This document shows, piece by piece, positions 27,550 through 52,700 of a DNA stretch of 52,816 nucleotides. Numbering within the stretch: the stretch's first letter is position 1; every line of letters starts with the position of its first letter. Source of the DNA: a virus (Duplodnaviria; Caudoviricetes); IMG/VR virus record IMGVR_UViG_3300032284_000652, positions 1-52,816 of that record, one strand, 5' to 3'. The notes under the pieces were generated by a model, which was not told where the DNA came from, did no database searches, and saw only the letters and a program-made list of their open reading frames with translations. A program made the translations under genes and the position numbers.

Positions 27550-29856
27550 ATGGCCATGACGCCGGGACTTATGCCGAACCTTCGCCAAGGCGGTCTCGGC
27601 GGCGCTGAGCCCATGAACGACGATGACGTGCAGGTCGAAGTTGCCGACAGCGATGGCGACGTTCCAAACATTGATGAAGACGGAAACGTCATCCAGATTG
27701 AGCACGATGACGGCTCGATCACCATTTCCCTCGACGGCAAGCCCCTGAACGAGCCGGAAGACCGCGCCCCCAAGGGTTGGTTTGACAATCTGGTGGAGGA
27801 CATCGACCAGAACGAACTGACCCGGATCGCCGAAGACCTGTTGCGCGGCATTGATGAGGACATCAATAGCCGCCGGGACTGGATCGAGGAGCGCGCTCTG
27901 GGCGTGAAACTCCTTGGCCTGAAGATCGAGATACCGGGGCTTCAAGGGGCCGCTGACGGGGCTCCGGTGGAGGGCATGAGCAAGGTCCGTCACCCGCTTC
28001 TGCTGGAGGCCGTGCTGCGGTTTCAGGCCAACGCCCGGTCGGAGCTTCTGCCGACTGACGGCCCCCTGAAGATCAGGAACGACAACAACCGCGCCGAGCT
28101 TAACGAGGACCAGCTTGCCAACGCGCTGGAGCGGGACCTGAACCACTACCTGACGTCCGTGGCGACCGAGTATTACCCCGACACGGATCGCATGCTGTTG
28201 ATGGTAGGTTTCGGGGGGACGCAGTTCAAGAAAGTCTATTTCTGCCCGCTGCGGAACCGGCCTGTCAGTGAGACGGTAGATGCCGACGATCTGATCGTCA
28301 ACAACAACGCCACCGATCTGGCCAACTCCAAGCGGATCACTCATCGCATCATGATGCGCCCGTCCGTGGTCAAGCGCATGCAGATACTGGGCGTCTATCA
28401 TGACGTCGATCTGGGATCAGCGCGGGCTCCAAAGCTGGACAGTCTGCAGCGGGAAGAGCGGACCCAGCAGGGCGTCTCGGCTGAAAGCAAGCCCGACGAC
28501 TACGACCGCGAGATTTATGAGTGTTACTGCGAACTCGACATCAAGGGCTACGAGCACAAGTGGAAGGGCAAGGCCTCCGGTCTCGAAATTCCCTACCGCG
28601 TGACCATCGACGTCTCGTCCCGCAAGGTCCTGTCCATCGTCCGCAACTACAACGACACCGAGCGCCTGCCGGAGCCCCGTGAGACGTTTGTGGACTACAC
28701 CTTCGTGCCGGGCATGGGCTTCTACGGCATCGGCCTGCTGCATATCCTCGGCAACACCACCAATGCCATCACGGCGGCGTGGCGGGAGATGCTGGACAAC
28801 GGCATGTACGCCAACTTCCCCGGCTTCCTGATGGCAAAGTCCGGCTCTCGCCAGAACACCAACATCTTCCGCGTACCCCCCGGCGGTGGCGCACAGATCG
28901 ACACAGGCGGCCTTCCCATCAATCAGGCCATCATGCCCCTGCCGTACCAGACGGGCGGCATGGGGCCGCTCATGCAGTTGACTGACAGCATGGCCCAGAC
29001 GGGCATGCGGATCGGCGGCACGTCGGAGCAGCAGGTCGGCGAGGGCCGTGCAGAGGCCCCTGTGGGCACGACGCTCGCCATGATTGAGCAGGCGACCAAG
29101 GTCATGAATGCCGTCCACAAGCGCCTCCACGCCGCTCAGGCGCGGGAGTTCAAGCTGCTGGTTGAGGTGTTCAAGGAGCACCCGGAGGCGTTCTGGCAGC
29201 GCAACGGGCCGTCCAAGACCCAGTGGGACGAGGACACGTTCCTGAAGGCGTTGGAGGACTGCGATCTGGTGCCGCAGGCGGACCCGAACACCGCCTCCCA
29301 TGGGCAGCGGGTCATGAAGATCATGGCGCTGAAGCAGCTTCAGGGCGCAAACCCGTCCATGTACGACCCCATCGCCGTGGACCGGGCTGCGCTGCAGGCC
29401 ATCGGCTGGAACAACCCCGAGCAGTTCCTTGTGCCGCAGGGTGCCCAGCAACAGCCGCCGCCTGAGCTTATCAAGATGCAGTCCGACGCCAAGGTCAACC
29501 AGCAGAAGGCCGACGCCGAGACCATGACGGCGCAGGCCAAGGCGAAGGAAGTGGACGCCAAGATACAGCAGGGCGCGTTCGCCCCCAAGCCCGCCGCTGG
29601 CGGCCTTGCCGGTAGCGAGCAGAAGCAGCCCGACCCTGCCGCTCAGATGACCGCACAGGCCAAGTTGATGGACGCCCAGACCAAGGGTCAGCAGATACAG
29701 GTCCAGCACGCCACGGCGCAGATGGAGGACCAGAACCGCGATCTGGACCGCCAGTCCCGCGAGCGCGTCGAGATGCTGTCGCTGGCCAAGGACGTGGCGT
29801 TACACCCTGAAGCGGCCCCAGCCGTCCGGTCGGTCGAGAAGGAAAGCAAATCGTGA
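27550..29856 (+). CDS. Portal protein (podovirus type)
   Basis: 768 aa after terL; HPLLLEAVLRFQA, FKKVY, GFYGIGLLH, PVGTTLAMIEQ motifs; Gln/Ala-rich C-terminal barrel. Confidence 0.92.
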   Translation: MAMTPGLMPNLRQGGLGGAEPMNDDDVQVEVADSDGDVPNIDEDGNVIQIEHDDGSITISLDGKPLNEPEDRAPKGWFDNLVEDIDQNELTRIAEDLLRGIDEDINSRRDWIEERALGVKLLGLKIEIPGLQGAADGAPVEGMSKVRHPLLLEAVLRFQANARSELLPTDGPLKIRNDNNRAELNEDQLANALERDLNHYLTSVATEYYPDTDRMLLMVGFGGTQFKKVYFCPLRNRPVSETVDADDLIVNNNATDLANSKRITHRIMMRPSVVKRMQILGVYHDVDLGSARAPKLDSLQREERTQQGVSAESKPDDYDREIYECYCELDIKGYEHKWKGKASGLEIPYRVTIDVSSRKVLSIVRNYNDTERLPEPRETFVDYTFVPGMGFYGIGLLHILGNTTNAITAAWREMLDNGMYANFPGFLMAKSGSRQNTNIFRVPPGGGAQIDTGGLPINQAIMPLPYQTGGMGPLMQLTDSMAQTGMRIGGTSEQQVGEGRAEAPVGTTLAMIEQATKVMNAVHKRLHAAQAREFKLLVEVFKEHPEAFWQRNGPSKTQWDEDTFLKALEDCDLVPQADPNTASHGQRVMKIMALKQLQGANPSMYDPIAVDRAALQAIGWNNPEQFLVPQGAQQQPPPELIKMQSDAKVNQQKADAETMTAQAKAKEVDAKIQQGAFAPKPAAGGLAGSEQKQPDPAAQMTAQAKLMDAQTKGQQIQVQHATAQMEDQNRDLDRQSRERVEMLSLAKDVALHPEAAPAVRSVEKESKS

Positions 29857-31433
29857 CGACATCCGCCAACCAGCGCATGCAAAAGGTCATCGATCTGGCG
29901 CGCGAAATCGCCGCCAAGACGTCCCCCGGCGTGGAAGACGTGCCCATGCCCAAGCCCGGCCAGCCGATCCCTGTGCTGCACTATCCAGTGCCGGGGTTTG
30001 CGAACGGCGGAAAGACCGTGCGGCGGGCGGTTATGGCGGCTAAAGGCAAGGGCGGCTCAACCGGAAAGCAAAACCTACCCATGGATGCGCAAAGCCGTGA
30101 AGAGCGCGCCGCTCAAATGGGTTTTTCGGGTCCGTGGTATCACGGCTCCGCTCGATTGGATCGGGTTGTTTCAGGCGACAAAATTGACCCCAAGCGCGCC
30201 ACGTCCGGTCCTATGCCTTTCTTCACCGACAATCCGGCCATGGCTTCCAATTACGCTACAGGAAAACAGGACACATCGCTGTCGGCTGGCGACACGGGTG
30301 AGACGGCAAATTATTTTACGGTTCATCCGAAAGACTTGGGTTTTTCAGGAAGGAATCCCATTCCGGTTGAAAAAAGCTGGCATTATCTGCCGCCGCACAT
30401 CAGATCACAAATCGCTCAAAGCGCCATGCGGGTGGGTTATCAAGATCAAGATGCCCATGACGGCGACCTTGTCTTGCATCCTGACTTTGGCTCTATCTCA
30501 TCGCCTGATCATTACGCCCATGTGCTAAAGGAACATCGGGGCAACCATTTGGCCGCTTTGCGCGATCTTTGGGTGGATTCGGGCACCCTGCACGGAGAAG
30601 AAGACAAGTTGGCCCACATCTACCGGCTGGCAGGGTATCCGCACCCCATCAGCCAAGAAACAGCCCCATGGGTTGGAGCGAGCGGCGTTCTTCCAGCCAA
30701 GCTCCAAATGAAAAACCCGCTCCGCACATCAGATACAGATTATTTGCATAAAACAGTCATTCCGCATTTGGAGCGCACGTTCAAAAATGATCGGACGCGC
30801 AAATCGCAATATGGCGCTGACATGTGGGATAAAAACCACCGCTACACACCCAAGGAATGGACCGAAACCTTGAAACAAGAATTGGCCAGAGGTGCCAATC
30901 CCATGGTTTTCACTTCCATCCCCGATAAAGTGACCAACGCGCTTCGTGCGCTGGGACATGACGGCATCATAGATACGGGCGGAAAACAGGGGGGCGAAGG
31001 CCACACGGTAGCCATTCCATTTGATGCCCATCAGGTTAGATCGCAATTCGCCAAGTTCGACCCTAAGGATGAGGGGAAATCCGGCTTTAGCAAGGCGGGC
31101 GGCGGATCGGCAGATTGGGATTCGTTGCTTCGACGGCAAAGAGACGTCGAGGGGCTTAAGGCGGCGATCAGGGACCCCCAAACGGGGGAAATCCATTATG
31201 GCCACACTCACAAATCCGTAATGGACGCAGCCTCTCGGCATCCTGATGCGGGTAAATGGAGCAGACTGTCGTGGGAATGGGGAAGTGATGATTCCCCTCA
31301 CGTTGGTTTTGTAACCCAAGAAGGTGATTTTCTGACTCGCGATGAAGCTAATGACAAATTAAAATTTGGTTACACCGCCGAAGATGCGCGCGATTTCCTT
31401 CGTAGAAAAAGGAACAATGGCGGGACGGTTTAA
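29853..31433 (+). CDS. Modular GG-motif protein with ADP-ribosyltransferase-like (ART-PolyVal-like) domain plus a second small domain
   Basis: WYHGS...FFTDNPAMASNYA...VLPAKLQMKNP...GHDGII...PFDAHQVRSQFAKFDP; modules bounded by FANGG/KGKGG, KAGGG and RNNGG. Confidence 0.7.
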   Translation: MTTSANQRMQKVIDLAREIAAKTSPGVEDVPMPKPGQPIPVLHYPVPGFANGGKTVRRAVMAAKGKGGSTGKQNLPMDAQSREERAAQMGFSGPWYHGSARLDRVVSGDKIDPKRATSGPMPFFTDNPAMASNYATGKQDTSLSAGDTGETANYFTVHPKDLGFSGRNPIPVEKSWHYLPPHIRSQIAQSAMRVGYQDQDAHDGDLVLHPDFGSISSPDHYAHVLKEHRGNHLAALRDLWVDSGTLHGEEDKLAHIYRLAGYPHPISQETAPWVGASGVLPAKLQMKNPLRTSDTDYLHKTVIPHLERTFKNDRTRKSQYGADMWDKNHRYTPKEWTETLKQELARGANPMVFTSIPDKVTNALRALGHDGIIDTGGKQGGEGHTVAIPFDAHQVRSQFAKFDPKDEGKSGFSKAGGGSADWDSLLRRQRDVEGLKAAIRDPQTGEIHYGHTHKSVMDAASRHPDAGKWSRLSWEWGSDDSPHVGFVTQEGDFLTRDEANDKLKFGYTAEDARDFLRRKRNNGGTV

Positions 31434-31507
31434 AAACCGCCTCGCACTTGACACAAGGTGTGGTATTTGTAGCGGATAGCCGGGACGCCGGTTGACTGGA
31501 GATTGCC

Positions 31508-32833
31508 ATGTCCGAGCACAAAAGCATCAGGGAGAGCCTGCCTCATGGGGGTCGTGGTCGCACCCGCGCCAAAGTCCTTCTCCGGTCTGACCCGCACAAG
31601 GGCAGCAAGGTCGATGCTTCGGACTACTCTCCGCCGGACGCTCTTGATCCTGATGTAAAGACGGGCATGCGCCCGCTCCGCACGCGCCTCTACAAGCGCG
31701 GTGGCAAGATCGTGAAGGTCCACGGCGAAAACGCCAAGCACCACGCCGGTCGCAAGCCCCGCAAGAGCGGCGGTCGTGCCATCGAGATGATGAACCGCGA
31801 CCAGCGAGACGCCAACGAGGAGCGCGAAGGCTCCAAGCATGAAGGCGCGTTCAAGCGCGGCGGCCGCGCCCACCGGTCTGACGGCGGGTCCTTTGTCCCC
31901 ACCGAGCGCATGAACTTCGGTTCCGCCGGGTCCAGCCGCATGTCCAAGGCCGCCGGTCTGAAGCGCGGCGGCATGGCACATCACGACGACGCCGCCGAAG
32001 ACATGGCGCTGATCAAGAAGACCGTGAAGGCCGACGCCCTGAAGCGCAAGCATGGCGGCAAGGCCCACCGCAAGCACCGTGACATGGGCGACATGCTCGA
32101 TGAGGACGGCGGCGGATACAGCAGCCCCGTCGATCACTCGATGGACGACAACATGCCGGTGTTTACGCCGCGCAAGCGTCCGCAAGACCCGTCCGTGATC
32201 CGTGGCCGTGACATCTACGAGCCGGTCCCGCCGCGCGCCCACGGCGGCAAGGTCGAAATCCACCACGCATCTTGCAAGTGCCACAAGTGCTCCGGCGGCA
32301 GCGCCCACGCCCATGGCGGCAAGGTCGAAGTCCACCACGTTAATTGCGAATGCACCAAGTGCAAGGCGGCTGACCGCAAGGGCCGCTCGACCGGCGGATC
32401 GCTCGACGTGATGGACGGCGAGATGGAGGGCACGCGCCCCACCGGCTATCGCGAAGTCGGCCACCGCTCTGCCCGCAAGCATGGCGGTCGCGCCAAGGGC
32501 AAGACCAACATCAACATCGTGATCGGAGCGCCCGGTCACCACGCTGACGCGGCTCCCGGCGTGGGAATGCCACCTCCTCCTCCCCGTGGCGTTCCCGTGC
32601 CTCCCCCCGCCCCGCCCATGGGCGGCATGCCTCCGGGGATGCCTCCGGGCGGCCCTCCCGGCATGATGCCCCCCGGCATGATGCCTCCCGGCGGAGCGCC
32701 GCCCATGCCACGCAAGCGTGGCGGTCGTGCCATTCCCATGGCGGCTGCGGCGGCTCTGGGCGAGCATGACACAGGCAGCGGCGGCGGTCTGGGCCGCCTC
32801 GCTAAAATTCGGTCCTATGGCCACTACGACTGA
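31508..32833 (+). CDS. His/Arg/Lys-rich protein with ~11 xxxGG motifs and a Pro/Met/Gly-rich tail
   Basis: RBS ggag; YKRGG, RKSGG, FKRGG, RSDGG, LKRGG, RKHGG, RAHGG, HAHGG, RSTGG, RKHGG, RKRGG. Confidence 0.85.
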   Translation: MSEHKSIRESLPHGGRGRTRAKVLLRSDPHKGSKVDASDYSPPDALDPDVKTGMRPLRTRLYKRGGKIVKVHGENAKHHAGRKPRKSGGRAIEMMNRDQRDANEEREGSKHEGAFKRGGRAHRSDGGSFVPTERMNFGSAGSSRMSKAAGLKRGGMAHHDDAAEDMALIKKTVKADALKRKHGGKAHRKHRDMGDMLDEDGGGYSSPVDHSMDDNMPVFTPRKRPQDPSVIRGRDIYEPVPPRAHGGKVEIHHASCKCHKCSGGSAHAHGGKVEVHHVNCECTKCKAADRKGRSTGGSLDVMDGEMEGTRPTGYREVGHRSARKHGGRAKGKTNINIVIGAPGHHADAAPGVGMPPPPPRGVPVPPPAPPMGGMPPGMPPGGPPGMMPPGMMPPGGAPPMPRKRGGRAIPMAAAAALGEHDTGSGGGLGRLAKIRSYGHYD

Positions 32834-32844
32834 CGAAAGGATGC

Positions 32845-32875
32845 ACGGCGGTGTCGTTTGATGCCGCCGTTTTTA
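32845..32875 (+). terminator. Rho-independent terminator
   Basis: acggcggtgtc-gttt-gatgccgccgt followed by a T-tract. Confidence 0.8.
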
Positions 32876-32879
32876 TTAT

Positions 32880-33077
32880 ATGCTGACGTACAATACCTTA
32901 TTTGAGCATGAGCTTAAAAAGATTATCCTCGCCGAGATCGAGCGGATGACAGACATATTGGCCAATGGCTCTGCCATTGACTACGCCGAGTACAAGCAAC
33001 AGGTTGGACGTATTCAGGGCCTGAAAACGGCCTTGGACTACTGCGACGAAGCCTCATCCATCATCTCAAAAAGGTAA
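32880..33077 (+). CDS. Small head-module protein
   Basis: G.A.DYAEYKQQVGRIQGL motif, upstream of the GroES-like gene. Confidence 0.75.
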   Translation: MLTYNTLFEHELKKIILAEIERMTDILANGSAIDYAEYKQQVGRIQGLKTALDYCDEASSIISKR

Positions 33078-33080
33078 CCT

Positions 33081-33470
33081 ATGCCCTACATGGTTATGAC
33101 CCACGACGTCGATCCAAAAGAGGCCCTCCTCAAGGAGATCGGCGACATCGACAGCGTCGAAATCTTCAACAATCAGGTGCTGTGCGCCGTCTACGTGCGC
33201 CCGGAGAAGACCAAGAGCGGCCTTTACATCACCTCCGCCAGCCGCGACGAGGACAAGATTCAGGGCAAGGTCGGCCTGATCCTGAAGAAGGGCCCGGCGG
33301 CCTTCATCGACGACGGCCAGTGGTTTGCCGACACGACGTTTGAGGACGGGGAGTGGGTCGTTTTCCGCCCGTCTGATGGCTGGAGCATCACCGTCAACGG
33401 TGTCCAGTGCCGCATGATCGATGATGTCAATATCCGGGGGCGCATCCAGCACCCCGACCAAGTGTGGTAG
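33081..33470 (+). CDS. groES: GroES-like co-chaperonin
   Basis: VL....PEKTKSGLYI...VGLILKKGP...GEWVVF...RMIDD..I.G pattern of Cpn10. Confidence 0.8.
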   Translation: MPYMVMTHDVDPKEALLKEIGDIDSVEIFNNQVLCAVYVRPEKTKSGLYITSASRDEDKIQGKVGLILKKGPAAFIDDGQWFADTTFEDGEWVVFRPSDGWSITVNGVQCRMIDDVNIRGRIQHPDQVW

Positions 33471-33478
33471 GAGACAAC

Positions 33479-34372
33479 ATGAGCACGAAAGACGAAGATC
33501 AGATCGAAATTGAGATTGATGACCCCTCCGCCCCCGCCTCTGACGAGGTCAAGGTCGAGGTCATTCCCGAAAGCACCAAGAAGCGGGTCGTGGAGCCCGA
33601 TGACGGTCTCGAAGCCTTGAAGGTTGCCCTTCAACAGGAAAAGGCGGCCCGTCTGGCCGCTGAACAACGGGCTCAGGACGCTGCGCAGTTTGCCTACAGC
33701 GCCCAGAACGAGGCGCATGACAGCAATCTGAGCCTTGTGTCCAACGCCATTGCCACGGTCGGTCAAACCAACGAAATTCTGAAGGCAAACTATCGCGAAG
33801 CGATGTCCGTGGGCGACTACGACCGCGCTTCCGACATTCAAGTCGAGATGGCCAGCAATCAGGCGAAGCTCTTGCAGCTTGAGCAGGGCAAGCAGGCGCT
33901 GGAGAACCAGTCCCGCCCGCAGGCTCCGCAGCCGTATCAGTCCGATCCGGTCGAAGCATTGGCGTCTCAGCTTTCTCCGCGCTCCGCAAACTGGCTGCGG
34001 GCGCATCCTGAGTTCGCCACGGACCAGCGTCTCTATCAAAAGATGCTGGCGGCGCACAATCTGGCGGTCGCAGACGGCCATCCGGTGGACAGCGACGACT
34101 ACTTCTCCGAGATCGAGGGCACGCTCCGCATCAACCGCTCTGAATCCCGGTCTGATCACTCCGATCCGACCCAGCAGGCGGCTCAAGTGACGCAGCGCCG
34201 GTCGGCACCGCCTGCCGCGCCGGTCTCGCGCAGCGGAACCGCGCCCGGCACCCGTCCCAACACCGTCCGGCTGACCGCCCAGCAGATCGAGATGGCTGAA
34301 CTCATGGGCATGACCCCGCAGCAATACGCCAAGAACCTCTTGGCGCTGCAGAAGGAAGGGAAGCTCAACTAA
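33479..34372 (+). CDS. Putative capsid scaffolding protein
   Basis: Acidic N-terminus, coiled coil, C-terminal VRLT..Q...A..MGMT..QYAK; located upstream of the capsid genes. Confidence 0.75.
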   Translation: MSTKDEDQIEIEIDDPSAPASDEVKVEVIPESTKKRVVEPDDGLEALKVALQQEKAARLAAEQRAQDAAQFAYSAQNEAHDSNLSLVSNAIATVGQTNEILKANYREAMSVGDYDRASDIQVEMASNQAKLLQLEQGKQALENQSRPQAPQPYQSDPVEALASQLSPRSANWLRAHPEFATDQRLYQKMLAAHNLAVADGHPVDSDDYFSEIEGTLRINRSESRSDHSDPTQQAAQVTQRRSAPPAAPVSRSGTAPGTRPNTVRLTAQQIEMAELMGMTPQQYAKNLLALQKEGKLN

Positions 34373-34971: not shown

Positions 34972-35001
34972 CGAGGGCCTGTCTGGGGTTGGACATGGAT
35001 C

Positions 35002-35036
35002 GGGGCCGGTGAATGACGCACCGGCCCCTTTTCTTT
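35002..35036 (+). terminator. Rho-independent terminator
   Basis: ggggccggtg-aatgacg-caccggcccc followed by ttttcttt. Confidence 0.85.
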
Positions 35037-35077
35037 GCCCGCTATAGGTTGTTACGCCCTGTCAACATCTTTTTTGT

Positions 35078-36110: not shown

Positions 36111-36123
36111 GGAGTAAGGACCA

Positions 36124-37038
36124 ATGGCTGTTAACCTTTCAGCAATTAAAGACCTTCTCCTTCCGGGCCTGCGGGGGATTGAAGGCAAGTACGAGATGAT
36201 CCCGTCTCAGTACGACAAGATTTTCACCAAGCACGACTCGAAGCTGGCGCTCGAACGTACCGCTGAAATGCGCTACCTCGGGCTGGCCCAGCTTAAGACC
36301 GAGGGCGGCCAGACCTCCTTCGACAACGGCGCTGGTGAGCGGTACGTGTACAACCAAGAGCACTCGGAAATCGCTCTGGGCTACGCGATCACCCGCAAGG
36401 CCATCGACGACAACCTCTACAAGACGCAGTTCCACCCGTCGAACCTCGGCCTGATTGAATCCTTCCAGCAGACCAAGGAAATCTACGGCGCGTCGATCCT
36501 GAACACGGCTCAGACCTACAACAACCAAGTCGGCGGCGACGGCGTGGCGCTCTGCTCCACCGCCCACCCCATCGACGGTGGTACGGTCGCCAACACCCCG
36601 CTGACGCAGGTTGACCTCAACGAGAGCACCCTGCTGAACGGCATGATCTCCATCCGCACGAACTTCAAGGACCAAGCCGGTCTGAAGGTGTTCGCTCGCG
36701 GCCGGAAGCTGATCATCCCGCCGCAGCTTGAGCCGGTGGCGATCCGCCTGACCAAGACCGAGCTTCGTCCCGGCACCGCCGACAACGATGTGAACGCAAT
36801 CCTGACGACCGCTGGCGGTCTGCCGGAAGGCTACATGGTTGACGACTTCCTCACCTCGTCCTTCGCGTGGTTCCTGCTGACCAACATCGACGGCCTCTCC
36901 TACATGGAGCGGGTCAAGTTCGAGACGGACATGCAAGTGGACTTCGTGACCGACAACCTGCTGGTCAAGGGTTACGAGCGGTACAGCTTCGGCTACTATA
37001 ACTGGCGCGCGATCTACGGCGCGTTCCCGACCTCGTAA
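36124..37038 (+). CDS. Major capsid protein (HK97 fold, Mu gpT-like)
   Basis: LLLPGL, KTEGG, IALGYAITRKAIDDNLY, GDGVALCSTAHP, KLIIPPQL, ERYSFG..NWR. Confidence 0.92.
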   Translation: MAVNLSAIKDLLLPGLRGIEGKYEMIPSQYDKIFTKHDSKLALERTAEMRYLGLAQLKTEGGQTSFDNGAGERYVYNQEHSEIALGYAITRKAIDDNLYKTQFHPSNLGLIESFQQTKEIYGASILNTAQTYNNQVGGDGVALCSTAHPIDGGTVANTPLTQVDLNESTLLNGMISIRTNFKDQAGLKVFARGRKLIIPPQLEPVAIRLTKTELRPGTADNDVNAILTTAGGLPEGYMVDDFLTSSFAWFLLTNIDGLSYMERVKFETDMQVDFVTDNLLVKGYERYSFGYYNWRAIYGAFPTS

Positions 37039-38273: not shown

Positions 38274-38831
38274 ATGAAGCATCATGAACATCACGGACGT
38301 CACCACCGGGCTACCGGCGGCATCAACGAGGCAGAGATGGACCTGCGCGACAAGCCGGAAGCCCGGACTGAAGCCAGGGAAATCGATCACGAAGCCGAAG
38401 AGCGCAAGCACGGCGGCCATGTGAAGCACAAGCGCCATGCCCGCAAGCACGGCGGCGGCATTATGCATGCCCACGGCCATGCCCACCACGGCATCCACGG
38501 CAAGCATCACGAAGGCTTTGGCGCTGAGCACCACACCACCACGAAGCGGACTGCCCGCAAGCGTGGCGGCAAGGCCCTGCACGGCTCTCAAGAGGGCGAG
38601 GGCTTTGGCCCGCAAGACGAGGGCACCAAGATGCGCCGCCGTCATGGTGGTCATGTGAAGCACCACATGGCCAAGCATGTCGGCCACGTCCACGGTGAGC
38701 ATGCCAAGCATCACGCTGGCCGCAAGCCTCGCAAGTCCGGCGGCAAGGTTGGCTCCGACAGCCACCCCTTCACCTCCGCCTTCCACGGCGAGGTCCCGAA
38801 GGGTCGCAAGCTCGACATGGAAATGGACTGA
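38274..38831 (+). CDS. His-rich basic protein with six xxxGG motifs
   Basis: RATGG, RKHGG x2, RKRGG, RRHGG, RKSGG. Confidence 0.85.
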   Translation: MKHHEHHGRHHRATGGINEAEMDLRDKPEARTEAREIDHEAEERKHGGHVKHKRHARKHGGGIMHAHGHAHHGIHGKHHEGFGAEHHTTTKRTARKRGGKALHGSQEGEGFGPQDEGTKMRRRHGGHVKHHMAKHVGHVHGEHAKHHAGRKPRKSGGKVGSDSHPFTSAFHGEVPKGRKLDMEMD

Positions 38832-42104: not shown

Positions 42105-42857
42105 ATGGCCGCCAGCACCACTGCCCTGACGTACAACTCCTACGTCACTCAGATCGCCACCATGGCGGTGGTCAACACCACTACCAGCGGCGGCCTGACC
42201 GTGTTCTCGGACACGGCCATGCAGAACGCCCTGCCCCAGATGCTGAACTATGCCGAGCTTCGCATCCAGCGCGACCTTGACCTGCTGCCCCTGCAGACCA
42301 CCAACACCACCTACAGCCTTTCCACAGGCAGCAACACCCTGTCGATCCTGACCAGCGACTTCGTGACGCTGCAGAATATCATCCTGACCGGCACCGGCCA
42401 GCCGCTTCTGCCAGTGACCAAGGAGTGGCTGCAGAACGTCTACGGCATCGGATCGACGCGGGGCCCGCCCGCGTACTTTGCGCCCTACGGCGGGGACACC
42501 AGCGGCGGCAACACCAACCAGTATTTCATCGTGGGCCCGATCCCCGATCAGGCCTACGCTTTGACGCTGGTAGGAACGATCCGCATGCCCACGCTTTACG
42601 TGACCAGCGGCACCGGCACCAACACCACCTTCATCTCGACTTACCTGCCGGACCTGCTGATCATGGCCAGCATGATCTACGTCAGCGCCTACCAGCGCAA
42701 CTTTGGACGCCAGAGCGATGATCCGGCCATGGCCCAGTCCTACGAGAGCCAGTACCAAGCCCTCATGAAGGGCGCGATGGTTGAGGAGTATCGGAAACGT
42801 TTTGAAGCTTATGCATGGTCCTCTGAATCGGTCTCGCCCGCAGCAACGAAAGGGTGA
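42105..42857 (+). CDS. Head-tail adaptor-like protein
   Basis: AELRIQRDL...GPPAYFA...VGPIPDQAY...PDLLIMASM. Confidence 0.7.
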   Translation: MAASTTALTYNSYVTQIATMAVVNTTTSGGLTVFSDTAMQNALPQMLNYAELRIQRDLDLLPLQTTNTTYSLSTGSNTLSILTSDFVTLQNIILTGTGQPLLPVTKEWLQNVYGIGSTRGPPAYFAPYGGDTSGGNTNQYFIVGPIPDQAYALTLVGTIRMPTLYVTSGTGTNTTFISTYLPDLLIMASMIYVSAYQRNFGRQSDDPAMAQSYESQYQALMKGAMVEEYRKRFEAYAWSSESVSPAATKG

Positions 42858-42859
42858 CC

Positions 42860-43411
42860 ATGTTTTATGTTTATGAGCATTGGCGTCCTGATCGTAACGA
42901 ATGTTTTTACGTGGGAAAGGGTAAGGGCTCTCGCGCCAACATGATGCGCCGAAGGAATAAATTCCACGCGGCCATTCAAAACAAATTGGCCCGACTTGGT
43001 CTTGCGGTTGAGGTCCGCATTATTGCTCACGGCCTTACAGAAGCCGAGGCATTCGATTTGGAGAGAACGCGCATTGCCTTGTGGCAATCAGACGGAGCCG
43101 ATTTGGCCAATATGACCAAAGGCGGAGATGGCATTTTTGGATTTTCCCATTCCAAAGAAACCCGTGAAAAAATGTCCCGATCTGCGCTTGGCGTAAAAAA
43201 ATCGGACGAAGCTAAAAAAAATATGTCCCTTGCTAAAAGGGGGAAATCTTGTTTTCCGCCATCGCTTCAAAAAGCGATTTTGGCCAAAACTGGAAGGCCC
43301 ACTCCTCCAGAGGTGCGCGCAAAAATGTCCGAAGCTGCTAAGCGACGAGACCCAAAATGTTATGCTCGCATGGTTGCCACTCGCCGGGCTAAAAAGGTCG
43401 AGGAGCAGTAA
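42860..43411 (+). mobile_element. Free-standing GIY-YIG homing endonuclease with NUMOD3-like repeats
   Basis: FYVY.H......FYVGKG...R...E...N.T.GG; HSKETREKMS repeats; AT-rich relative to flanks. Confidence 0.85.
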
Positions 43412-46940: not shown

Positions 46941-46950
46941 GGGGCTCACC

Positions 46951-49140
46951 ATGCCACTGACCAAGGGCAAATCCCAGAAGACCATCAGCCACAACATCAG
47001 CGAGATGATCGACGCTGGACATCCGAGGGATGTTGCCATCGCCGCTGCGCTGAACACGGCGCGGAAGGTGGCGAAGGCGGGCGGGGGTCCGACAGAGGCG
47101 CAGAAAGAGGCCGGAAACTACAAGAAGCATCACATGCGGTTTCAGGGCCTCGACATTGCCATTGAAAATCTCAAGGGCTCTACGCGCAGCGGCGTCGGCC
47201 CCACAGGTGCGCGGTGGTCTGTCGTCATGCCCGCCGACTATGGCTACATCAAACGGACGGAGGGCGCAGACGGCGACCATGTCGATTGCTATGTCGGACC
47301 TCACTCCGATAGCAGAGAGATTTACGTCGTTGATCAGATCGACCCCCGCACCAAAAAGTTTGACGAGCACAAATGCTTCCTCGGCTTCAAGTCGGAGGCT
47401 GACGCCGTCAAGACCTACGACCGTGGGTTCAGCGACGGCAGCGGCCCCCGCCGCCGCGCTTCTGTCCACACTATGACAATGCAGGAATTCAAGCATTGGT
47501 TGGAGTTCGGCGACACGACAAAGCGCGTAGCCCGCGCCTCCGGCGGCGGCCTCTACGCCAACATCCACGCCAAGCAGGAGCGCATCGCCCACGGCTCCAA
47601 GGAGCACATGCGCAAGCCCGGTGCGGCGGGAGCGCCCACGGCGGCGGCCTTCAAGCAGTCGGCGCGGACGGCCAAGGCGGGTGGCGGTGAGACTGAGAAC
47701 AAGAACTACGGCTCTCACAAGGGCCGTCCGTTCTGGTCTGGGATTTATGACACGCGAGATGGATTCATCCGAGAGACCCACCCTTATGAAAGGGCGGAAA
47801 AAGTAGACTTCCATCATTCGTACTATGTCAGCCCGCAGTCTCAGGATGCCATGCGCCATGGCGAGGCTGGGTTCTTCTGGATGGAACCCGACAAGTCCAT
47901 TCAAACGCATTGGCGCGATGGCGAAGCCCCTCCGCACATTGTCCGCGCTATCAAAGCGCAGCTTGATCCCGTCATCCAGAACGCGGGTGGCGGCGATGTG
48001 GAAGGTCGCTACCTAAATGCTCAAGGACTTTACAGCGCCCGCGCCTCCGGCGGAGGCCTCTACGCCAACATCCACGCCAAGCAGCAGCGCATCGCCCACG
48101 GCTCCAAGGAGCACATGCGCAAGCCCGGCAGCCCCGGCGCTCCCACGGCGGCGGCCTTCAAGCAGTCCGAACGCACCGCCCGCGCTGACGGCGGCCCCGT
48201 CCTCACGCCCCACGGCACGGTGGAGGACCACGGCCGCACCATGCCGGAGACGGCCCACACGCTGGCCCTGCAGCATCAGGCGCTGCTGGAGGGCCGCAAG
48301 GCGGCGGTCCTGTACCCCCACAATGGCCACAAGCCGCCCCACCCCGCCCACGGGCAGGGCGTGACCAGCATCAAGGACGGCATTGTCCACTACAACCCGG
48401 CCGTGCTGACCGAGCATCAAATCCACGCGGCGGCCGACGCTGACCGGCTCAACGAAATTCTGGGCCTCGGGCCGTTCAACAAGAACGACGTCTGGCAGCG
48501 GGTGCAAAACGGGGAGCGGTCTGTGGGCGTGGTGTCGCGCGACAGGCACGGCCATGAGGCATCGGCGGCGTTGGGCACTGAGGAGACCGCCCCCGCCCAA
48601 ATGGAAGCCCTGCAGGCCCACATGCCCGAGGGCGGCAGCGTCAGCATCGAGCACCCCATGGAAACTCTACAAGGACGCCAAGCGCACGCCTCCGGCGGCC
48701 AAGTGACCGAGAAGCTGCACACGGGCCCGATTTACTCCCCGGTGGCCGGGCGCACCGATCACCTGCCCATGCACGTCCCCAGCGGCTCCTATGTGATCCC
48801 GGCGGACATCATCAGCGCCATGGGCGAGGGCAACACCATGGCGGGCTTCAAGCACATGCGGCGCATGTTCTCGGGCGCTCCCTACGGCGGCGACGGGGAC
48901 GTGCCCTACGGCGGCTCCGGCGGGCCCTACAACGAGCCCCTGAAGGCGAGCGGCGGCTCGACCCAGTCGGTGCCCATCGTGGCCGCTGGCGGTGAATATG
49001 TGTTGGCACCCCATGAGGTGAAATATGCGGGCGGCGGCGACCTTGACGCTGGCCACCGCGTTCTGGATGACTTCGTGAAGCGTTATCGTTCCCAGACCAT
49101 CAAGACGTTGTCTAAACTTCCGGGGCCAAAGCGCGATTAA
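46951..49140 (+). CDS. Modular GG-delimited polyprotein including an inorganic-pyrophosphatase-like domain
   Basis: Eight xAxGG boundaries; PTEAQKEAGNYKK...IEN.KGS.RSG...DYGYI..T.GADGDHVD...FDEHK..LGF domain; duplicated LYANIHAK module. Confidence 0.8.
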   Translation: MPLTKGKSQKTISHNISEMIDAGHPRDVAIAAALNTARKVAKAGGGPTEAQKEAGNYKKHHMRFQGLDIAIENLKGSTRSGVGPTGARWSVVMPADYGYIKRTEGADGDHVDCYVGPHSDSREIYVVDQIDPRTKKFDEHKCFLGFKSEADAVKTYDRGFSDGSGPRRRASVHTMTMQEFKHWLEFGDTTKRVARASGGGLYANIHAKQERIAHGSKEHMRKPGAAGAPTAAAFKQSARTAKAGGGETENKNYGSHKGRPFWSGIYDTRDGFIRETHPYERAEKVDFHHSYYVSPQSQDAMRHGEAGFFWMEPDKSIQTHWRDGEAPPHIVRAIKAQLDPVIQNAGGGDVEGRYLNAQGLYSARASGGGLYANIHAKQQRIAHGSKEHMRKPGSPGAPTAAAFKQSERTARADGGPVLTPHGTVEDHGRTMPETAHTLALQHQALLEGRKAAVLYPHNGHKPPHPAHGQGVTSIKDGIVHYNPAVLTEHQIHAAADADRLNEILGLGPFNKNDVWQRVQNGERSVGVVSRDRHGHEASAALGTEETAPAQMEALQAHMPEGGSVSIEHPMETLQGRQAHASGGQVTEKLHTGPIYSPVAGRTDHLPMHVPSGSYVIPADIISAMGEGNTMAGFKHMRRMFSGAPYGGDGDVPYGGSGGPYNEPLKASGGSTQSVPIVAAGGEYVLAPHEVKYAGGGDLDAGHRVLDDFVKRYRSQTIKTLSKLPGPKRD
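47530..48167 (+). repeat. Two near-identical 131-bp direct repeats (47530-47660 and 48037-48167)
   Basis: Both encode ARASGGGLYANIHAKQ.RIAHGSKEHMRKPG..GAPTAAAFKQS. Confidence 0.95.
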
Positions 49141-49186
49141 GGATGATGAAATTCCCCATGAACCTTAATGGCCGCAAGGATTGAAT

Positions 49187-49702
49187 ATGACCGAGACCCC
49201 AGAGAAGCTGTCCGTCCGCATCGGCACGCCGGAGGATGTCCACCGCATGATGGACATCGCGCTCATGGCCACGTCCGAGAACAGCTTCGCGTCTCCCAAC
49301 AAGATGAAGCTGCTGCAGGAAATCTGGGCCGCCCTGAACCTGCGCCATGGCCTTGTCGGCATCATCGGCGAGCCCGGCGAGATGATCGAGGGCGCGGTCC
49401 TGCTGCGCATCGGGCAGGTCTGGTACAGCGACGAGCCGATCCTTGAGGAGAAGGCCATCTTCATCCACCCGGACTATCGCAGCGCCAAGGGAGGGCGTGC
49501 GGCCCGGTTGTGTGAGTTTTCCAAGAAGGCTTCCGATGAATTGGGCATCCCCTTGACCATCGGGGTCATGAGCAACGAAAGAACTGCAGCCAAGGTGCGG
49601 ATGTATACCCGCATTATGGGGCCTCCCAGCGGGGCATATTGGTTGTATAACACCACGACCGGCGGGCACGGCATCGCTGCACCTGTGGCAGAAAAGGACT
49701 AA
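49187..49702 (+). CDS. GNAT-fold acyltransferase-like protein
   Basis: VRIGTPEDV...IFIHPDYRS..G.RAARL...K; directly upstream of the first ejection gene. Confidence 0.65.
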   Translation: MTETPEKLSVRIGTPEDVHRMMDIALMATSENSFASPNKMKLLQEIWAALNLRHGLVGIIGEPGEMIEGAVLLRIGQVWYSDEPILEEKAIFIHPDYRSAKGGRAARLCEFSKKASDELGIPLTIGVMSNERTAAKVRMYTRIMGPPSGAYWLYNTTTGGHGIAAPVAEKD

Positions 49703-49705
49703 GCT

Positions 49706-52700
49706 ATGGGCGGCAAGAGCAGCACTTCAACACAGCAGGTTTCGATCCCCCCCGAAGTGCTGGCCCGTTATAACTCCGTCAACGCCACGGCGGAGCAGGC
49801 TGCCGCCCAGCCCTTTCAGGCCTACAACGGCCAGTTCGTGGCCCCGCTGTCCTCCACGCAGGAGGCCGGGATCGCCAACACCAACACCGCCGCCGGTCAG
49901 GCGCAGCCCTACTATCAGCAAGCCACAGGCACTCTCATGGGCGCGCAGCAGGCGACCTCGCCCTACTATCAGGCCGCCACGCAGGCCCTGATGTCCGGCC
50001 TCGGACAGGGCGGCTACGGCACGCAGGCCGCTTACGGATCGCTCTACGGCGCGAACGCCGCTGCCGCGCCCCTGCAGGCCGCCGGGGCCTACAACATGGG
50101 CGCAGCCTACGCTGGGGCCCAGCCGTTCAATCGGCAGGCTGCTCAGGGCCTCGGGGCCGCGCAGCAGGCTGGCGCTGGCTATACCGCGCAGGGCTACAAC
50201 AGCGCCCAGCCCTACAACATGGCCGCTACCGGGCTTGCGGCGGCGGGCGCTGCTCCGGTGAATGCCCAGCAGATCGGCGGGCAGCAGATCGGCCAGTTCA
50301 TGTCGCCCTATATCGGGTCGGTCCTGCAGGGCACTGAGGGCATCCTGAATCAGCAGAACCAGCAGGCCCTGTCCGGCCAGCTTGGCAATGCGATCCAGTC
50401 CGGGGCCTTCGGCGGGGACCGGGCCGGGCTGGCGGCCGCGAACCTTGCGCAGCAGCAGCAACTGGCGAACGCCCAGACCTACTCCGGCATCCTGAACCAA
50501 GGCTACGGGCAGGCGCTGGCGGCCGCGCAGCAGCAGCAGGGCGTGAACTTGAGCGCCGAGCAGGCGAACCGCGCCGCCCTGCAGCAGGCGTCGGGCCAGA
50601 TGCTGGGCATCGGCCAGCAGGGATACGCGCAAGGCCTCGGGGCCGGGCAGCAGCTTTACGGGCAGGGCCTGTCCGCAGCCCAGCAGCAGGCCGCGCTTGG
50701 CCAGCAGCTTTACGGGCAGGGCATGGGCCTCGCCTCGGCGCAGACCGGCCTCGGGCAGCAGCTTTACGGGCAGGGCGCGACGACATCCCAGCAGCAGGCT
50801 GCGCTGGCCCAGCAGCAATACGCTCAGGGCCTCGGCGGCGCGAGCGGGCTGTCCAGCCTCGGCCAGAACATTTACGGCACTGGCGCTCAGACCGCGCAGC
50901 AACTGGCCGCACTGGGGACCGGCGCTCAGGGCGCGTCCCTCGCCGGGGCTCAGGCCCAGCTTGCCGCCGGTCAGCAGCAACAGCAGACCCAACAGGCGCA
51001 GGATCAGGCTCTCTACAACCAGTTTCTGCAGCAACAGTCCTATCCGTTCCAGACGGCCCAGTTCCTCGCGAACATCGCGGAGGGCACCGGCTCGCTGTCT
51101 GGCTCGACCACGACCACGACGCAGCCGGGCGGCTTCTTCTCCGACGAGCGGCTGAAGGAGAACATCAAGCCCATCGGTAAGACGAACGACGGGCAGACGA
51201 TCTACAGCTACAACTACAAGGGCGACCACCGCACCCAGATCGGCCTGCTGGCGCAGGAGGTCGAGAAGCGCCACCCCGAGGCCGTGGGCCTCGCGGGCGG
51301 CTATAAGACCGTGGACTACGCCAAGGCGACCCACGACGCCGAGCGCCATCGCCGGGCCTCTGGCGGCGGTCTGGTGGGCGCTGGAGACGCCTACAGGGGC
51401 TTCGCTGACGGCGGCGTGCCCGGCTTCGACCCCACGCTGGCCCAGAGCATGGCCGCCACCGAGACCGGCATGTTTGGCCCCTATGGCACGTCCGGTGGCC
51501 TTGGCGGCGGCCACAGCCGCGTGCCCGGCGCGACCCTGCCGGTCGGCCATCTGCAGACCGCTGGCGCCCTCGCGCCGCAGAAGTCCGGCCTTGAGCAAGG
51601 GGCCGAGATGGCCAACCTGCTGGGAACCGCCGAAAAGGATTACGACTGGGCCAAGAAGACGTTTGCCGGCTCATGGCGCGGTGGGCTGCGCGGCGGTTAC
51701 GCCGATGGCGGCATGCCTTACGGCCAAGAGACGCAGGGCCTCGACATTCCCGACGAACAAAAGTCCACGCCTCAACTTGCGACGGCCCAAGGCTCGCCCG
51801 GCAAGGGCCGCAGCGGCATGGACGATGTCATGGACATGGCAAAGATCGCGACCATGGCTATGAAACTCAAGCGTGGCGGCCGGATCGGCAAGGCGGACGG
51901 CGGCGGCTTTGACGACGACTCGTGGGATGCGAACTGGGACGACGACGGCACGCCCTTTGGCGATACGACGGCAGATTCATCCGCCACCAATACGTACGAT
52001 ATCGCCGCGCTGTTGAACAAGATTAACCCCTTCGCCTCGCATCAGCAAAATGTGCAGCATCCTGCCGCGCCTGCGCCCGCGCCCACCAACATGACTGGTG
52101 GATTGGCTGGAGCCATCGCCAAAGTCGAGGGCGTCGGCAAAAACCCGACCTCCTCCGCCAAGGGGATGTATCAACTGACCGACCCCACCTTCATTGACAT
52201 GTACCGCAAGAACTTCGGCGATCAGGCCAAGGCCATGAGCGACAAGCAGATCATTGCCCTGCGCAACAGTCCGCAAGGTGAGCAACTTTCCGAAGCGCTG
52301 GGCCCGAAGCTGATCCAGCACAACATCAATGTCCTGCGTCAGAACGGCGTGAACACCACCGCTGGCAATGTCTACCTTGCGCACTTCCTCGGGCCGTTTG
52401 CGGCCATCAGGGTGCTGAATGCCCACCCCGACCAGAACGTGGCCGATATTGTGTCTCACAGCGCTATTCACGCCAACAAAAGCATCCTTCAGGGCAAGAG
52501 CGTCCGCGATGTGATCAATTGGGCGCAGCAGAAGATGGCCCATGCCGGGGCCGACCCGCGCACCGCCTTCGCCAAGGGCGGGCTGGCCGGATCACGCAAG
52601 GGCTACAGTGGAGACGATGGCGACAGCTACGTCGATGGCGCGTTCCCGGGCGACACCGATCCATACGCACCGGATCAGGCGACGCCCTACACGCCGCCGC

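Follow-up and report, generated by a model that had tools for sequence, protein, structure and literature searches.

The window analysed here is the whole 52,816-base genome record IMGVR_UViG_3300032284_000652 of IMG/VR, and window coordinates are used throughout. It is a complete circular podophage genome with all accepted genes on the plus strand and a GC content of about 62%; its ends share an overlap of 92 nucleotides (nt; 1-92 and 52725-52816) inside a 42-nt tandem repeat, IMG/VR classes it under direct terminal repeats and CheckV rates it as 100% complete. Our subject is a short di-glycine motif, in its strict form [RKHFY][AKS].GG, which recurs in six proteins of this genome. The open reading frames (ORFs) concerned are the following, with lengths in amino acids (aa):

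ORF 29853: 29853-31433, plus strand, post-portal polyvalent cargo protein overlapping the portal stop codon, 2 strict motifs
ORF 31508: 31508-32833, plus strand, basic protein predicted to be disordered, 10 strict motifs and 1 loose motif
ORF 38274: 38274-38831, plus strand, small His/Lys/Arg-rich protein, 5 strict motifs and 1 loose motif
ORF 46951: 46951-49140, plus strand, carrier with inserted cargo, 8 strict motifs, Pfam InPase at E=4e-51
ORF 49706: 49706-52816 and on through 93-1757, plus strand, large ejection-type protein, 5 strict motifs
ORF 1770: 1770-4253, plus strand, virion-type protein of 827 aa, 1 strict motif (a conserved RASGG at 4080) and a loose HFGGG at 4056

Applied as a regular expression to a greedy set of plus-strand ORFs, the strict motif yields 34 matches, 31 of which are located within these six proteins. 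An earlier reading of the sequence alone (below, the sequence-only reading) had reported 2, 4, 11, 6, 8 and 6 copies for ORFs 1770, 29853, 31508, 38274, 46951 and 49706, respectively. These counts are reproduced once looser words are added (HFGGG at 4056, KGKGG at 30042, RNNGG at 31410, LKRGG at 31958, RRHGG at 38637 and LKRGG at 51866), and the positions listed for ORFs 1770 and 49706 match exactly; the loose pattern gives one extra word in ORF 49706 (LGQGG at 50000). Pooled, the six proteins hold 31 matches in 3,745 aa against 3 in 11,473 aa for the 41 other ORFs (binomial p=3.5e-16, for a motif that was defined post hoc), which amounts to a 32-fold difference in density (8.3 against 0.26 per 1,000 aa).

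For a composition-matched comparison the residues of 29 proteins were shuffled 5,000 times each. None of the shuffles reached the observed number of strict motifs in ORF 31508 (10, against a shuffle mean of 0.62), ORF 38274 (5 against 0.41) or ORF 46951 (8 against 0.61), and for ORF 49706 the excess is likewise significant (5 against 0.77, p=0.0016). It is marginal for ORF 29853 (2 against 0.25, p=0.023) and absent for ORF 1770 taken alone (1 against 0.27, p=0.23), so that the clustering noticed in the sequence-only reading exceeds composition in four of the six proteins. Its further observation that such clusters are missing elsewhere was borne out: the portal, the large terminase subunit, the major capsid protein, the nozzle and the helicase have no match. 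Since the tail fibre ORF 4264 (16% Gly, 20 GG pairs) contains only 2 matches, richness in glycine is not the cause. An unbiased tally around every GG in 240 homologues returned R, K or F at position -3 and A (polyvalent type) or K (basic type) at position -2; in the basic type GG is followed by R or K and then by A or V.

ORF 46951 consists of modules that are separated by copies of the motif:

residues 1-42: N-module (PHROG 2423), then KAGGG
residues 49-185: InPase (Pfam, E-value as above), then RASGG
first copy of a 50-aa module (PHROG 16028, best stretch 200-242), then KAGGG
residues 247-363: unnamed module, then RASGG
second copy of the 50-aa module (second PHROG 16028 stretch, in the 158-nt repeat), then RADGG
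residues 416-578: 163-aa module, then HASGG
residues 588-644: C1, then a G/P/Y-rich linker and KASGG
residues 670-729: C2
47530-47687, plus strand: duplicated 158-nt block encoding the 50-aa module, with a copy at 48037-48194 (87% identical)

According to a repeat search the 158-nt block spans from the RASGG motif to the KAGGG/RADGG motif. This agrees with the sequence-only reading, which had a duplicated block with motifs at its start and end, and its placing of motifs at the edges of domains is confirmed as well. The profiles of PHROG 2423 and PHROG 16028 comprise 52 and 50 positions, so both are families of small proteins. An AlphaFold2 model of ORF 46951 (built on 60 homologues) has a predicted local distance difference test score (pLDDT) >90 at residues 1-43, 430-577, 610-640 and 680-720, scores of 76-85 for the blocks 590-609 and 671-680, and <50 at residues 45-71, 578-585 and 645-670, which are motif sites; residues 117-175 and 180-417 are also low, probably because of a thin alignment. 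In this model, the motif sits in linkers that are predicted to be disordered. Across the 60 aligned homologues G582 is invariant, and conservation reaches 90% or more at G45, G46, A580, G583, G668 and G669; the residues flanking these positions vary.

C1 and C2 have the same strand-strand-helix-helix pattern in the model. The segment 48712-49137 (residues 588-729) appears as two copies of a small unit (G-S/E-Y-V-I/L-P...), and the polar residues that are invariant in the alignment of 60 homologues include D603, D619, N628, E682, H702 and D706. No PHROG or Pfam family covers residues 583-729. A Foldseek search of the model against the PDB gave nothing at E<=0.001 (best E=0.18) and VIA-align against 48,161 chains gave a best Z of 5.8 on the N-terminal helical hairpin and no match on C1/C2; the query was the entire 729-residue model, so the C-module may still have a known fold. 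An M23-like reading of the C1 segment HTGP...TDH found no support and was dropped.

The only relative in GenBank at the DNA level is the uncultured MW202675.1. It encodes a 193-aa homologue of ORF 46951 without any cargo, which consists of the N-module, GG, C1, linker, KAAGG and C2. Its gene is located between nozzle-like and acetyltransferase-like genes, and the latter is followed by a 1,185-aa protein labelled 'internal virion protein D' by the depositor; the gene order in the window is identical. In total, the C-module family comprises 2,062 clusters at 50% identity (E<=0.001), the best 150 of which range from 116 to 1,500 aa. Of the 133 proteins newly fetched, 32 have at most 230 aa, 72 have 231-400 aa, 24 have 401-800 aa and 5 are longer. 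The minimal carriers (171-215 aa) keep a short N-terminal helix that ends in GG, e.g. MNAIDNAIRIARAEGG, and most of the 22 minimal carriers displayed have basic/aromatic-x-x-GG before C2 (entries P0342, P0365 and P0359 do not). Retention of the motif without cargo, in the 193-aa form as well as in the minimal forms, argues for a function of the motif itself: it is not just a boundary of cargo, as it is kept at the same joints of cargo-free forms.

In the longer carriers, enzyme domains are inserted between the N-module and C1 or between C1 and C2, with a copy of the motif on each side. By our reading of the alignments the C1/C2 insertion is found in 16 of 120 homologues, again with the motif on both sides. 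The cargo domains in the homologues are ART-PolyVal, GNAT, InPase, NUDIX, zeta toxin, methyltransferase, GP88, DUF7178 and DUF6098, with no peptidase among them; InPase, ART-PolyVal, NUDIX, GNAT, zeta toxin and methyltransferase are enzymes that act in the cytoplasm. Judged from these alignments, the carrier is shown to have fixed joints (between N-module, C1 and C2) which bear the motif even when empty and into which enzymes were inserted repeatedly.

The small modules occur in other contexts too. Over the first 37 of the 46 residues searched, the N-module (46951-47088; 3501-3611 of locus L074) matches the N-terminus of the DUF2213 'head maturation protease' of Acinetobacter phage AbP2 (57% identity, E=2e-5), and relatives of AbP2 match as well. 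The AbP2 protein (442 aa) is made up of an N-module-like segment, the DUF2213 domain and an acidic tail, and its gene is found just ahead of the head proteins; the match is a lead that connects the N-module with the interior of the head. A stand-alone 48-aa ORF corresponds to the N-module in Pseudomonas phage O4. The 50-aa module matches the N-terminal part (about residues 7-49) of a protein of 170 aa, which is encoded in the portal-to-capsid cluster of Synechococcus phage S-RIP2.

To place the motif relative to mosaic breakpoints, we used homologues and 67 related IMG/VR loci that were retrieved by their portal (56-95% identity for the 66 loci holding more than a short end fragment; the portal of the remaining one, L068, is a fragment with 53% identity). 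When ORF 46951 is aligned to 120 homologues, 245 of the 314 internal ends of high-scoring segment pairs (HSPs) are located within 8 aa of a motif, where 59.2 are expected. In total 73 HSPs start at residue 1, with 49 of the 61 ends of that region at 45-57; 117 HSPs end at residue 729, and HSP starts cluster at 576-592. Similarly, for 28 related-locus proteins with 500 aa or more, a motif is found within 8 aa of 79 of the 211 mosaic HSP ends that were left after collapsing (20.6 expected). The excess is smaller in motif-dense proteins of 200-499 aa (153 of 346 ends, against 107 expected). The motif is thus found at mosaic junctions in close as well as in distant relatives.

A similar organisation is observed in the gene that follows the portal:

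27550-29856, plus strand: SU10-type portal (Pfam PF23899 SU10_portal, E=4.3e-12), the stop of which is overlapped by the next gene over 4 nt
29997-30011: FANGG, ending the constant 53-aa N-terminal adaptor of ORF 29853
30042-30056: motif of KTVRRAVMAAKGKGG, after the adaptor
31092-31106: KAGGG, ending a low-GC ART-like module
108-aa C-terminal module of ORF 29853, ending ...RNNGGTV

The alignment of ORF 29853 homologues is conserved at the N-terminus up to the GG and divergent beyond. At the DNA level, one related locus (L002, with about 90% identity in the portal region) can be aligned across the portal and codons 1-53 of ORF 29853; the homology ends at position 30010, which is in the second Gly codon of FANGG, and resumes at 31431. 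The ART-like module (residues 67-421) is shared with another locus (L020) according to blastp and is bounded by motifs in both proteins; its match to ART-PolyVal is weak (E=2.9e-4, below the Pfam cut-off). The GC content inside ORF 29853 is 45-61% at about 30100-31450 against 62-69% in the flanks. The drop occurs just past the motifs at 29997 and 30042, in agreement with the GC shifts near motifs described in the sequence-only reading. This low-GC cargo part looks recently acquired.

The post-portal proteins of related loci start with leaders such as MAKDVRRALMIAKAKGG, VSADIRRALMIARKISKAEGG and NYRKALLTVKRLKRAEGG. The leader in the window is longer and ends in PVPGFANGG, after which the segment with the second motif follows. 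A predicted complex of the portal (21 aligned sequences) and residues 1-75 of ORF 29853 (5 aligned sequences) scored 0.00 in both runs, made without folded controls, and is evidence neither for nor against an interaction.

A feature that was absent from the sequence-only reading is a short amphipathic helix of the VRRALMIAR type, which usually accompanies the motif. In polyvalent proteins the usual order is a module, [Y/K/R/F]-A-[D/E]-G-G, a few residues and K/R-R-A-L-M-I-A-R, sometimes followed by a second motif, and then the next module. Several proteins terminate in the motif plus a helix of 14-20 aa, e.g. FAHGGAIDYAVRLAAQYRR. The second helix of the N-module of ORF 46951 (AIAAALNTARKVAKAGGG) is of this same type. 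In leaders such as MAKDVRRALMIAKAKGG, MNAIDNAIRIARAEGG and ...AIAAALNTARKVAKAGGG an amphipathic helix directly precedes the GG, and in the model of ORF 46951 helix 26-43 ends at the motif.

The two basic proteins carry the motif in a different setting. For ORF 31508 AlphaFold2 yields a mean pLDDT of 51.5, with 239 of 441 residues <50 and six short helices only; given that the protein is predicted to be mostly disordered, its 11 motif copies would be linear motifs rather than elements of a repeat fold. Among 70 aligned homologues five GG pairs do not vary at all and three more are at least 90% conserved. The family has at least 2,756 homologues in a large protein collection, and the 120 that were listed are all unnamed and without a Pfam domain. 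The C-terminal tail GGGLGRLAKIRSYG is conserved (family consensus GGGLGRLEKIKxYG), and the segment HAKHHAGRKPRKSGG is common to ORFs 31508 and 38274. ORF 31508 also has a Pro/Met/Gly-rich stretch and two CxCxxC pairs, CKCHKCS and CECTKCK (32267-32290 and 32339-32362), each located after [R/H]AHGGKVE[I/V]HH. CxCxKC is present in the family consensus as well, and the pairs may, from their sequence, bind zinc.

ORF 49706 runs on into 93-1757 because the contig is circular, which brings its total length to about 1,591 aa. It is composed as follows:

Gln/Ala-rich N-terminal part
residues 479-527 (51140-51286): Peptidase_S74 (PF13884, E=5e-9)
motif-rich linkers: RASGG, FADGG, YADGG, LKRGG and KADGG
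residues 812-949: transglycosylase (phrog_4067, E=6.9e-19)
after the transglycosylase: FAKGG, 14-aa tandem repeats and a motif-free C-terminal part of 550 aa

The circular assembly breaks within the tandem repeat (42 nt, encoding the 14-aa unit GGGPTSKATPDTAPQ), the copy number of which is uncertain. The S74 domain carries the SDxRxK self-cleavage motif (FFSDERLKENI), and self-cleavage at SDERLK would split the Gln/Ala-rich N-terminal part from the rest of the protein. As this domain acts in cis, it is no candidate reader of the GG motif. An S74 chaperone domain is normally found at the C-terminus of a fibre; here it lies in mid-protein with more than 1,000 aa following, transglycosylase included, and the protein of MW202675 is arranged alike. 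The N-terminus MGGKSSTS (49706-49730; MGGKTSTT in MW202675), with Gly after Met and then Ser/Thr, might speculatively be likened to an N-terminal acylation site. In ORF 1770 the RASGG is located about 55 aa ahead of a helical C-terminal tail that ends ...ALDVAQRAI, and the MW202675 homologue has RKSGG at the same place.

Across the 67 related loci, 55 ORFs have at least three motif matches. Homologues of ORF 31508 were found in 30 distinct loci (35 ORFs matched, including several identical pairs) with 11-27 motifs per 1,000 aa, next to one homologue cut by a contig end (L056) with 6.8 per 1,000 aa. Homologues of ORF 38274 in 4 distinct loci (5 matches, two of them identical) keep the motifs at 29-35 per 1,000 aa. 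As controls we took polyvalent proteins and head regions of other phages. Rhizobium phage RHph_TM3_14A has an InPase polyvalent protein of 2,307 aa with 1 motif (0.72 expected), the 4,378 aa available of a polyvalent protein of Agrobacterium phage Atu_ph08 (its coding sequence is cut by the locus end) contain none (1.66 expected), and the head and cargo regions of phages CRP-902 and DSL-LC04 have 2 matches in 17 coding sequences and 3 in 11, respectively. Given that the controls are nearly free of the motif, a generic linker composition is no explanation. On these sequence comparisons, the motif appears as a lineage-wide short linear motif of SU10-portal, HTVC023P-related podophages and not as a general property of polyvalent proteins.

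Other lineages may use other leaders on their packaged proteins: gp72 and gp65 of CRP-902 (7550-8860 and 11260-12801 of locus L069, in the portal-to-capsid region) have a common N-terminal leader, MANPVK...G.GVID, which is distinct. In the same phage gp77 (4874-5182, 102 aa, directly after the portal) has a Pro/Met/Gly-rich stretch and GAGDLGGL, both reminiscent of the C-terminal part of ORF 31508. The N-terminal part of ORF 31508, basic and rich in motifs, may thus be an expansion specific to the lineage of the window.

We also compared the motif at the peptide and the DNA level. The likeness of motif DNA words is 0.611, against 0.559±0.012 in words recoded with the genes' own codon usage, and none of 500 controls reached the observed value; for the helix-coding words it is 0.728 against 0.692±0.011, with 19 distinct DNA words in 27 copies. 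Synonymous codons vary in the motif words and the Ala, Arg and Ser codons differ, which is consistent with conservation mostly at the peptide level.

The remaining annotation of the window gives the context in which these proteins are encoded:

terminase small and large subunits, identified in the window
ORF 33081: GroES-like protein with Cpn10 and phrog_3188 matches
33464-34372, plus strand: scaffold-like protein (phrog_28737, unknown function), motif-free
36124-37038, plus strand: major capsid protein (phrog_371, E=6e-11), motif-free
nozzle-type virion protein with a phrog_3287 match
49181-49702, plus strand: 173-aa protein, by eye a homologue of the 'putative acetyltransferase' of MW202675 (depositor label)
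ORF 4264: tail fibre
replication genes: UvrD-type helicase, Prim-Pol/DUF3987 primase, C5 methylase and RusA

The scaffold-like protein has an acidic N-terminus, an Ala/Gln/Glu-rich middle part that looks like a coiled coil (judged by eye only) and a C-terminus resembling a helix-turn-helix; its gene keeps its position in CRP-902 and DSL-LC04. We infer that it is a candidate partner of the basic motif proteins. The capsid gene is 82% identical at the nucleotide level to the annotated one of MW202675. The product of 49181-49702, the gene of which separates the carrier from the large ejection protein, is free of the motif and gave no match in Pfam or PHROG. Remoter relatives of the portal are found in Pelagibacter phages HTVC027P and HTVC023P, Roseobacter phages CRP-901 and CRP-902, phage DSL-LC04 and some Caulobacter podophages. 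Two endonuclease genes were seen, i.e. a homing-endonuclease-like gene (phrog_314) at 42854-43411 within the tail module and an HNH gene at 22319-22711 ahead of the packaging genes. The plus-strand ORF at 8503-9999 (498 aa) has an Arg/Gly/Ala/Val/Leu-rich translation, as is typical of a wrong frame in high-GC DNA, and overlaps long minus-strand ORFs; it is probably no gene, and the region 8500-10100 is unannotated.

Searches at E<=10 in all six frames of the complete genome gave no match for C39 (PF03412), C48 (PF02902), C5 (PF00770), S14 (PF00574), S49 (PF01343), S77 (PF03420), S78 (PF04586), MPTase-PolyVal (PF18818) or DUF2213, in line with the statement in the sequence-only reading that no canonical prohead protease is recognisable; the search covered the phage genome, and a C39 enzyme may be encoded by the host. 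Pfam and PHROG scans of about 50 ORFs and modules revealed no peptidase besides the S74 domain of ORF 49706. At E<=1 only chance-level Pfam matches were obtained for residues 247-363, 416-578 and 583-729 of ORF 46951, for the linkers and the wrap-around part of ORF 49706, and for ORFs 34372, 35205, 37051, 33464 and 1770. For ORF 34372 the ESM Atlas returned unnamed viral clusters only. As far as can be judged from these searches, a reader enzyme would belong to no recognisable protease family. The GroES-like ORF 33081 was considered as a hidden protease and rejected, as it matches Cpn10 and phrog_3188 and shows no catalytic signature. Ribosome skipping of the 2A type was dropped since it is not a bacterial mechanism.

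The sequence-only reading had proposed a plug-in delivery system, in which the motif is a cleavage site and/or capsid-loading signal. A plug-in modular architecture with the motif at its joints is strongly supported by the sequence comparisons: the motif is found at mosaic junctions, flanks inserted enzymes on both sides, and is present in the proteins expected inside the capsid but absent from the capsid, terminase, nozzle and replication proteins. Cleavage and capsid loading go beyond what has been shown computationally. The core [R/K/H/F/Y]-[A/K]-x-G-G, usually followed by x-[V/I/A], is a genuine linear peptide motif of linkers predicted to be flexible. The proteins bearing it (29853, 46951 in the position of T7 gp14, 49706 and 1770) would ride in the capsid and be ejected with the DNA. 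The joints would be sites of endoproteolytic processing, cut within the capsid or after ejection, by which inserted effectors and small modules would be released as separate polypeptides and the disordered basic proteins 31508 and 38274 would be chopped into peptides. The neighbouring helix would serve as a leader or anchor that brings the protein into the procapsid. Cleavage of the joints, with or without a role in targeting, is suggested by analogy, and we tentatively give it somewhat less than an even chance. This rating is based on the conserved flanks, the presence of the motif in empty carriers, the occurrence of the modules as separate proteins elsewhere, the cytoplasmic action of the cargo and the density of sites in the basic proteins. 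In a more specific form, Gly-Gly-specific maturation would be carried out by a protease of no known family, comparable in a phage to the adenovirus protease; with joints of the type [R/K/F/Y]-[A/K]-x-G-G as its sites, it would free the effectors and chop the basic proteins into DNA-condensing peptides, and the helix-GG leader would be a portable capsid-loading tag. Such an enzyme could be an unassigned protein of the head module or the tandem C1/C2 of the carrier itself. We regard this specific form as doubtful and rather unlikely.

A number of observations weigh against processing. No protease of the nine families is detectable in a genome that is 100% complete according to CheckV, and C1/C2 cannot be called an enzyme given that the modelled carrier matches no solved fold there. 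Scaffold-assembled podophages are commonly without a prohead protease. Some motifs are located 2-3 residues from the C-terminus (...NNGGTV in ORF 29853, ...HARGGVAK in MW202675), where a cut would be of little use. Of the 30 motif copies 28 use GGC for their first Gly, against a background of 221 in 332, and a small contribution at the DNA level may exist. Gly-Gly is also the simplest flexible hinge. Finally, no cleavage has been observed, and proteomic or N-terminal data for this phage or its relatives were not found; the paper on CRP-901 (PMC10149686) makes no mention of protease or mass spectrometry.

Given these points, it might be argued that the joints are never cut. As uncleaved hinges or domain-insertion adaptors, the motifs would form flexible tethers in proteins that stay intact; foreign domains could then enter loops of the structural ejection proteins with the fold of the carrier left undisturbed, and the chain could unfold and thread through the tail channel. 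The location of the motifs in low-pLDDT linkers between confident domains fits this explanation, as do the failure to find a protease in the nine-family search, the motifs on both sides of C1/C2 inserts (which loop insertion predicts) and the copies too near a C-terminus for a useful cut. Flexibility, however, needs no conserved residues at -3 (R/K/F/Y), -2 (A/K) and +2 (V/I/A), other polyvalent proteins do without the motif, cargo-free carriers retain it, and ORFs 31508 and 38274 have 6-11 conserved copies although they are disordered and free of domains; we consider hinges somewhat unlikely. Alternatively, the motif could be a multivalent docking peptide that recruits proteins to the scaffold, the portal or the inner capsid, and in its basic form (RKxGGRA) it could bind the packaged DNA instead. 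It is indeed confined to proteins that are expected inside the capsid; leaders of helix plus GG are found at the extreme N-terminus of post-portal proteins and minimal carriers, and GG plus helix tails at C-termini. The N-module matches the N-terminus of the DUF2213 protein of AbP2, the strongly acidic N-terminus of the scaffold-like protein contrasts with the very basic ORFs 31508 and 38274, and gene 29853 overlaps the stop codon of the portal. No partner was found, however, and the capsid protein, which remains well conserved in relatives without the motif, is no obvious lineage-specific reader. Moreover, the polyvalent-type motif is often acidic (YADGG, KAEGG), which speaks against DNA binding as a general role; AT-hook or RGG-type binding was dropped for the same reason. 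Docking without cleavage is, in our judgement, fairly improbable.

Explanations that require no function of the peptide appear less probable still. If …GGCGGC… and the helix-coding words provided microhomology, the motif would be a recombination adaptor and its coincidence with junctions a by-product of cassette exchange. The breakpoint with L002 exactly at a motif, the duplication of the motif on both sides of inserts, and the excess likeness of motif words (0.611 against 0.559, with GGC in 28 of 30) and helix words (0.728 against 0.692) are all compatible with this. Yet both synonymous and non-synonymous changes are frequent (the 27 helix copies use 19 distinct words), the motif is degenerate as a peptide and keeps fixed positions in non-mosaic proteins and in cargo-free carriers, and 15 nt is short for homologous exchange, which makes such an origin very unlikely. 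Chance is of negligible probability. A post hoc motif in a Gly- and Arg/Lys-rich high-GC genome invites this suspicion, and ORFs 1770 and 29853 are by themselves not or marginally significant; the shuffles (none of 5,000 reaching the observed count in three proteins), the 32-fold difference in density and the mere 2 matches in the Gly-rich tail fibre, together with conservation in 60 and 70 aligned homologues from families of 2,062 clusters and at least 2,756 proteins, have already refuted it.

If the joints are indeed processing or loading signals, they would provide a portable rule: anything between two motifs of a carrier is delivered. The phages concerned are abundant freshwater and soil podophages. 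Processing at the joints would explain how polyvalent effectors are split in phages without the MPTase of Iyer et al. and would point to an undiscovered protease or receptor, and it would offer an engineering handle to load foreign proteins into phage capsids. Even when uncut, the fixed joints in a protein of about 190 aa illustrate neatly how domains are inserted in nature at defined adaptors. Metagenomes could also be screened for new anti-host effectors by inspecting the stretches that lie between motifs.

The literature searched (main texts, and mostly titles and abstracts) contained no description of the motif, including a text search of the paper on HTVC023P-type phages (PMC9599517). Polyvalent proteins, as defined by Iyer, Burroughs, Anand, de Souza and Aravind (2017, PMC5512222), are argued by these authors to need processing into units; in the main text of that paper the processing is assigned to a zincin-like MPTase domain, and the ART-PolyVal and InPase families are defined there. 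That text uses none of the words 'glycine', 'linker', 'disordered' and 'low-complexity', and the motif is unmentioned. The proteins described here resemble the polyvalent proteins of PMC5512222, going by its main text, in being encoded by late genes near portal and virion genes, in stringing together unrelated enzymes and in being predicted to be packaged and injected. At least two unrelated domains are found in ORF 46951 (InPase and at least four modules) and in ORF 49706 (S74 and transglycosylase), and the late virion context is evident from the overlap of ORF 29853 with the portal stop and from the position of ORFs 46951 and 49706 after the nozzle-like gene. They differ in that the phage has no MPTase and that the modules are placed at fixed joints of a small carrier. 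Likewise, MuF and portal-fused toxin proteins (as cited in the main text of PMC5512222) combine a constant head adaptor with variable effectors in a gene adjoining the portal; here no MuF domain was detected and the adaptor is a leader of 17-53 aa that ends in GG.

The gene order of nozzle, small protein, 193-aa protein and large transglycosylase protein, in MW202675 and correspondingly in the window, resembles that of T7 gp14-gp15-gp16. No match to gp14 was obtained in sequence or, with the entire model as query, in fold; the assignment is positional, and an acetyltransferase-like gene is interposed. The T7 core proteins are not known to carry inserted enzymes or to be processed.

The closest chemical analogies are found in the adenovirus GG-X sites and the double-glycine leaders. 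The adenovirus protease, which is itself packaged, cuts at (M/I/L)-x-G-G|x, and basic core proteins associated with DNA are among its substrates. In double-glycine bacteriocin leaders GG follows a short amphipathic helix and is cut by C39 peptidase domains, and a helix precedes GG here as well (as in MAKDVRRALMIAKAKGG). The position -4 from the presumed cut is Ala or Lys here instead of a large hydrophobic residue as in adenovirus, the genome encodes no C5, C39 or C48 domain, and the substrates are not peptides destined for export.

The closest functional analogy is the capsid-targeting sequence of T4 and its protease gp21. In T4 internal proteins (among them the ADP-ribosyltransferase Alt) carry a short leader at the N-terminus, which directs them into the prohead and is then removed; core proteins are cut up into peptides, and a foreign protein to which the leader is added can be targeted as well. 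The cleavage site is L/I-x-E and the enzyme gp21 is an S77 protease. Unlike T4, the phage of the window is a podovirus with a scaffold protein and without an S77 match, and its motif is also found at internal and C-terminal positions; shared leaders that end in GG are present on its putative internal proteins and would be candidates for removal in the head.

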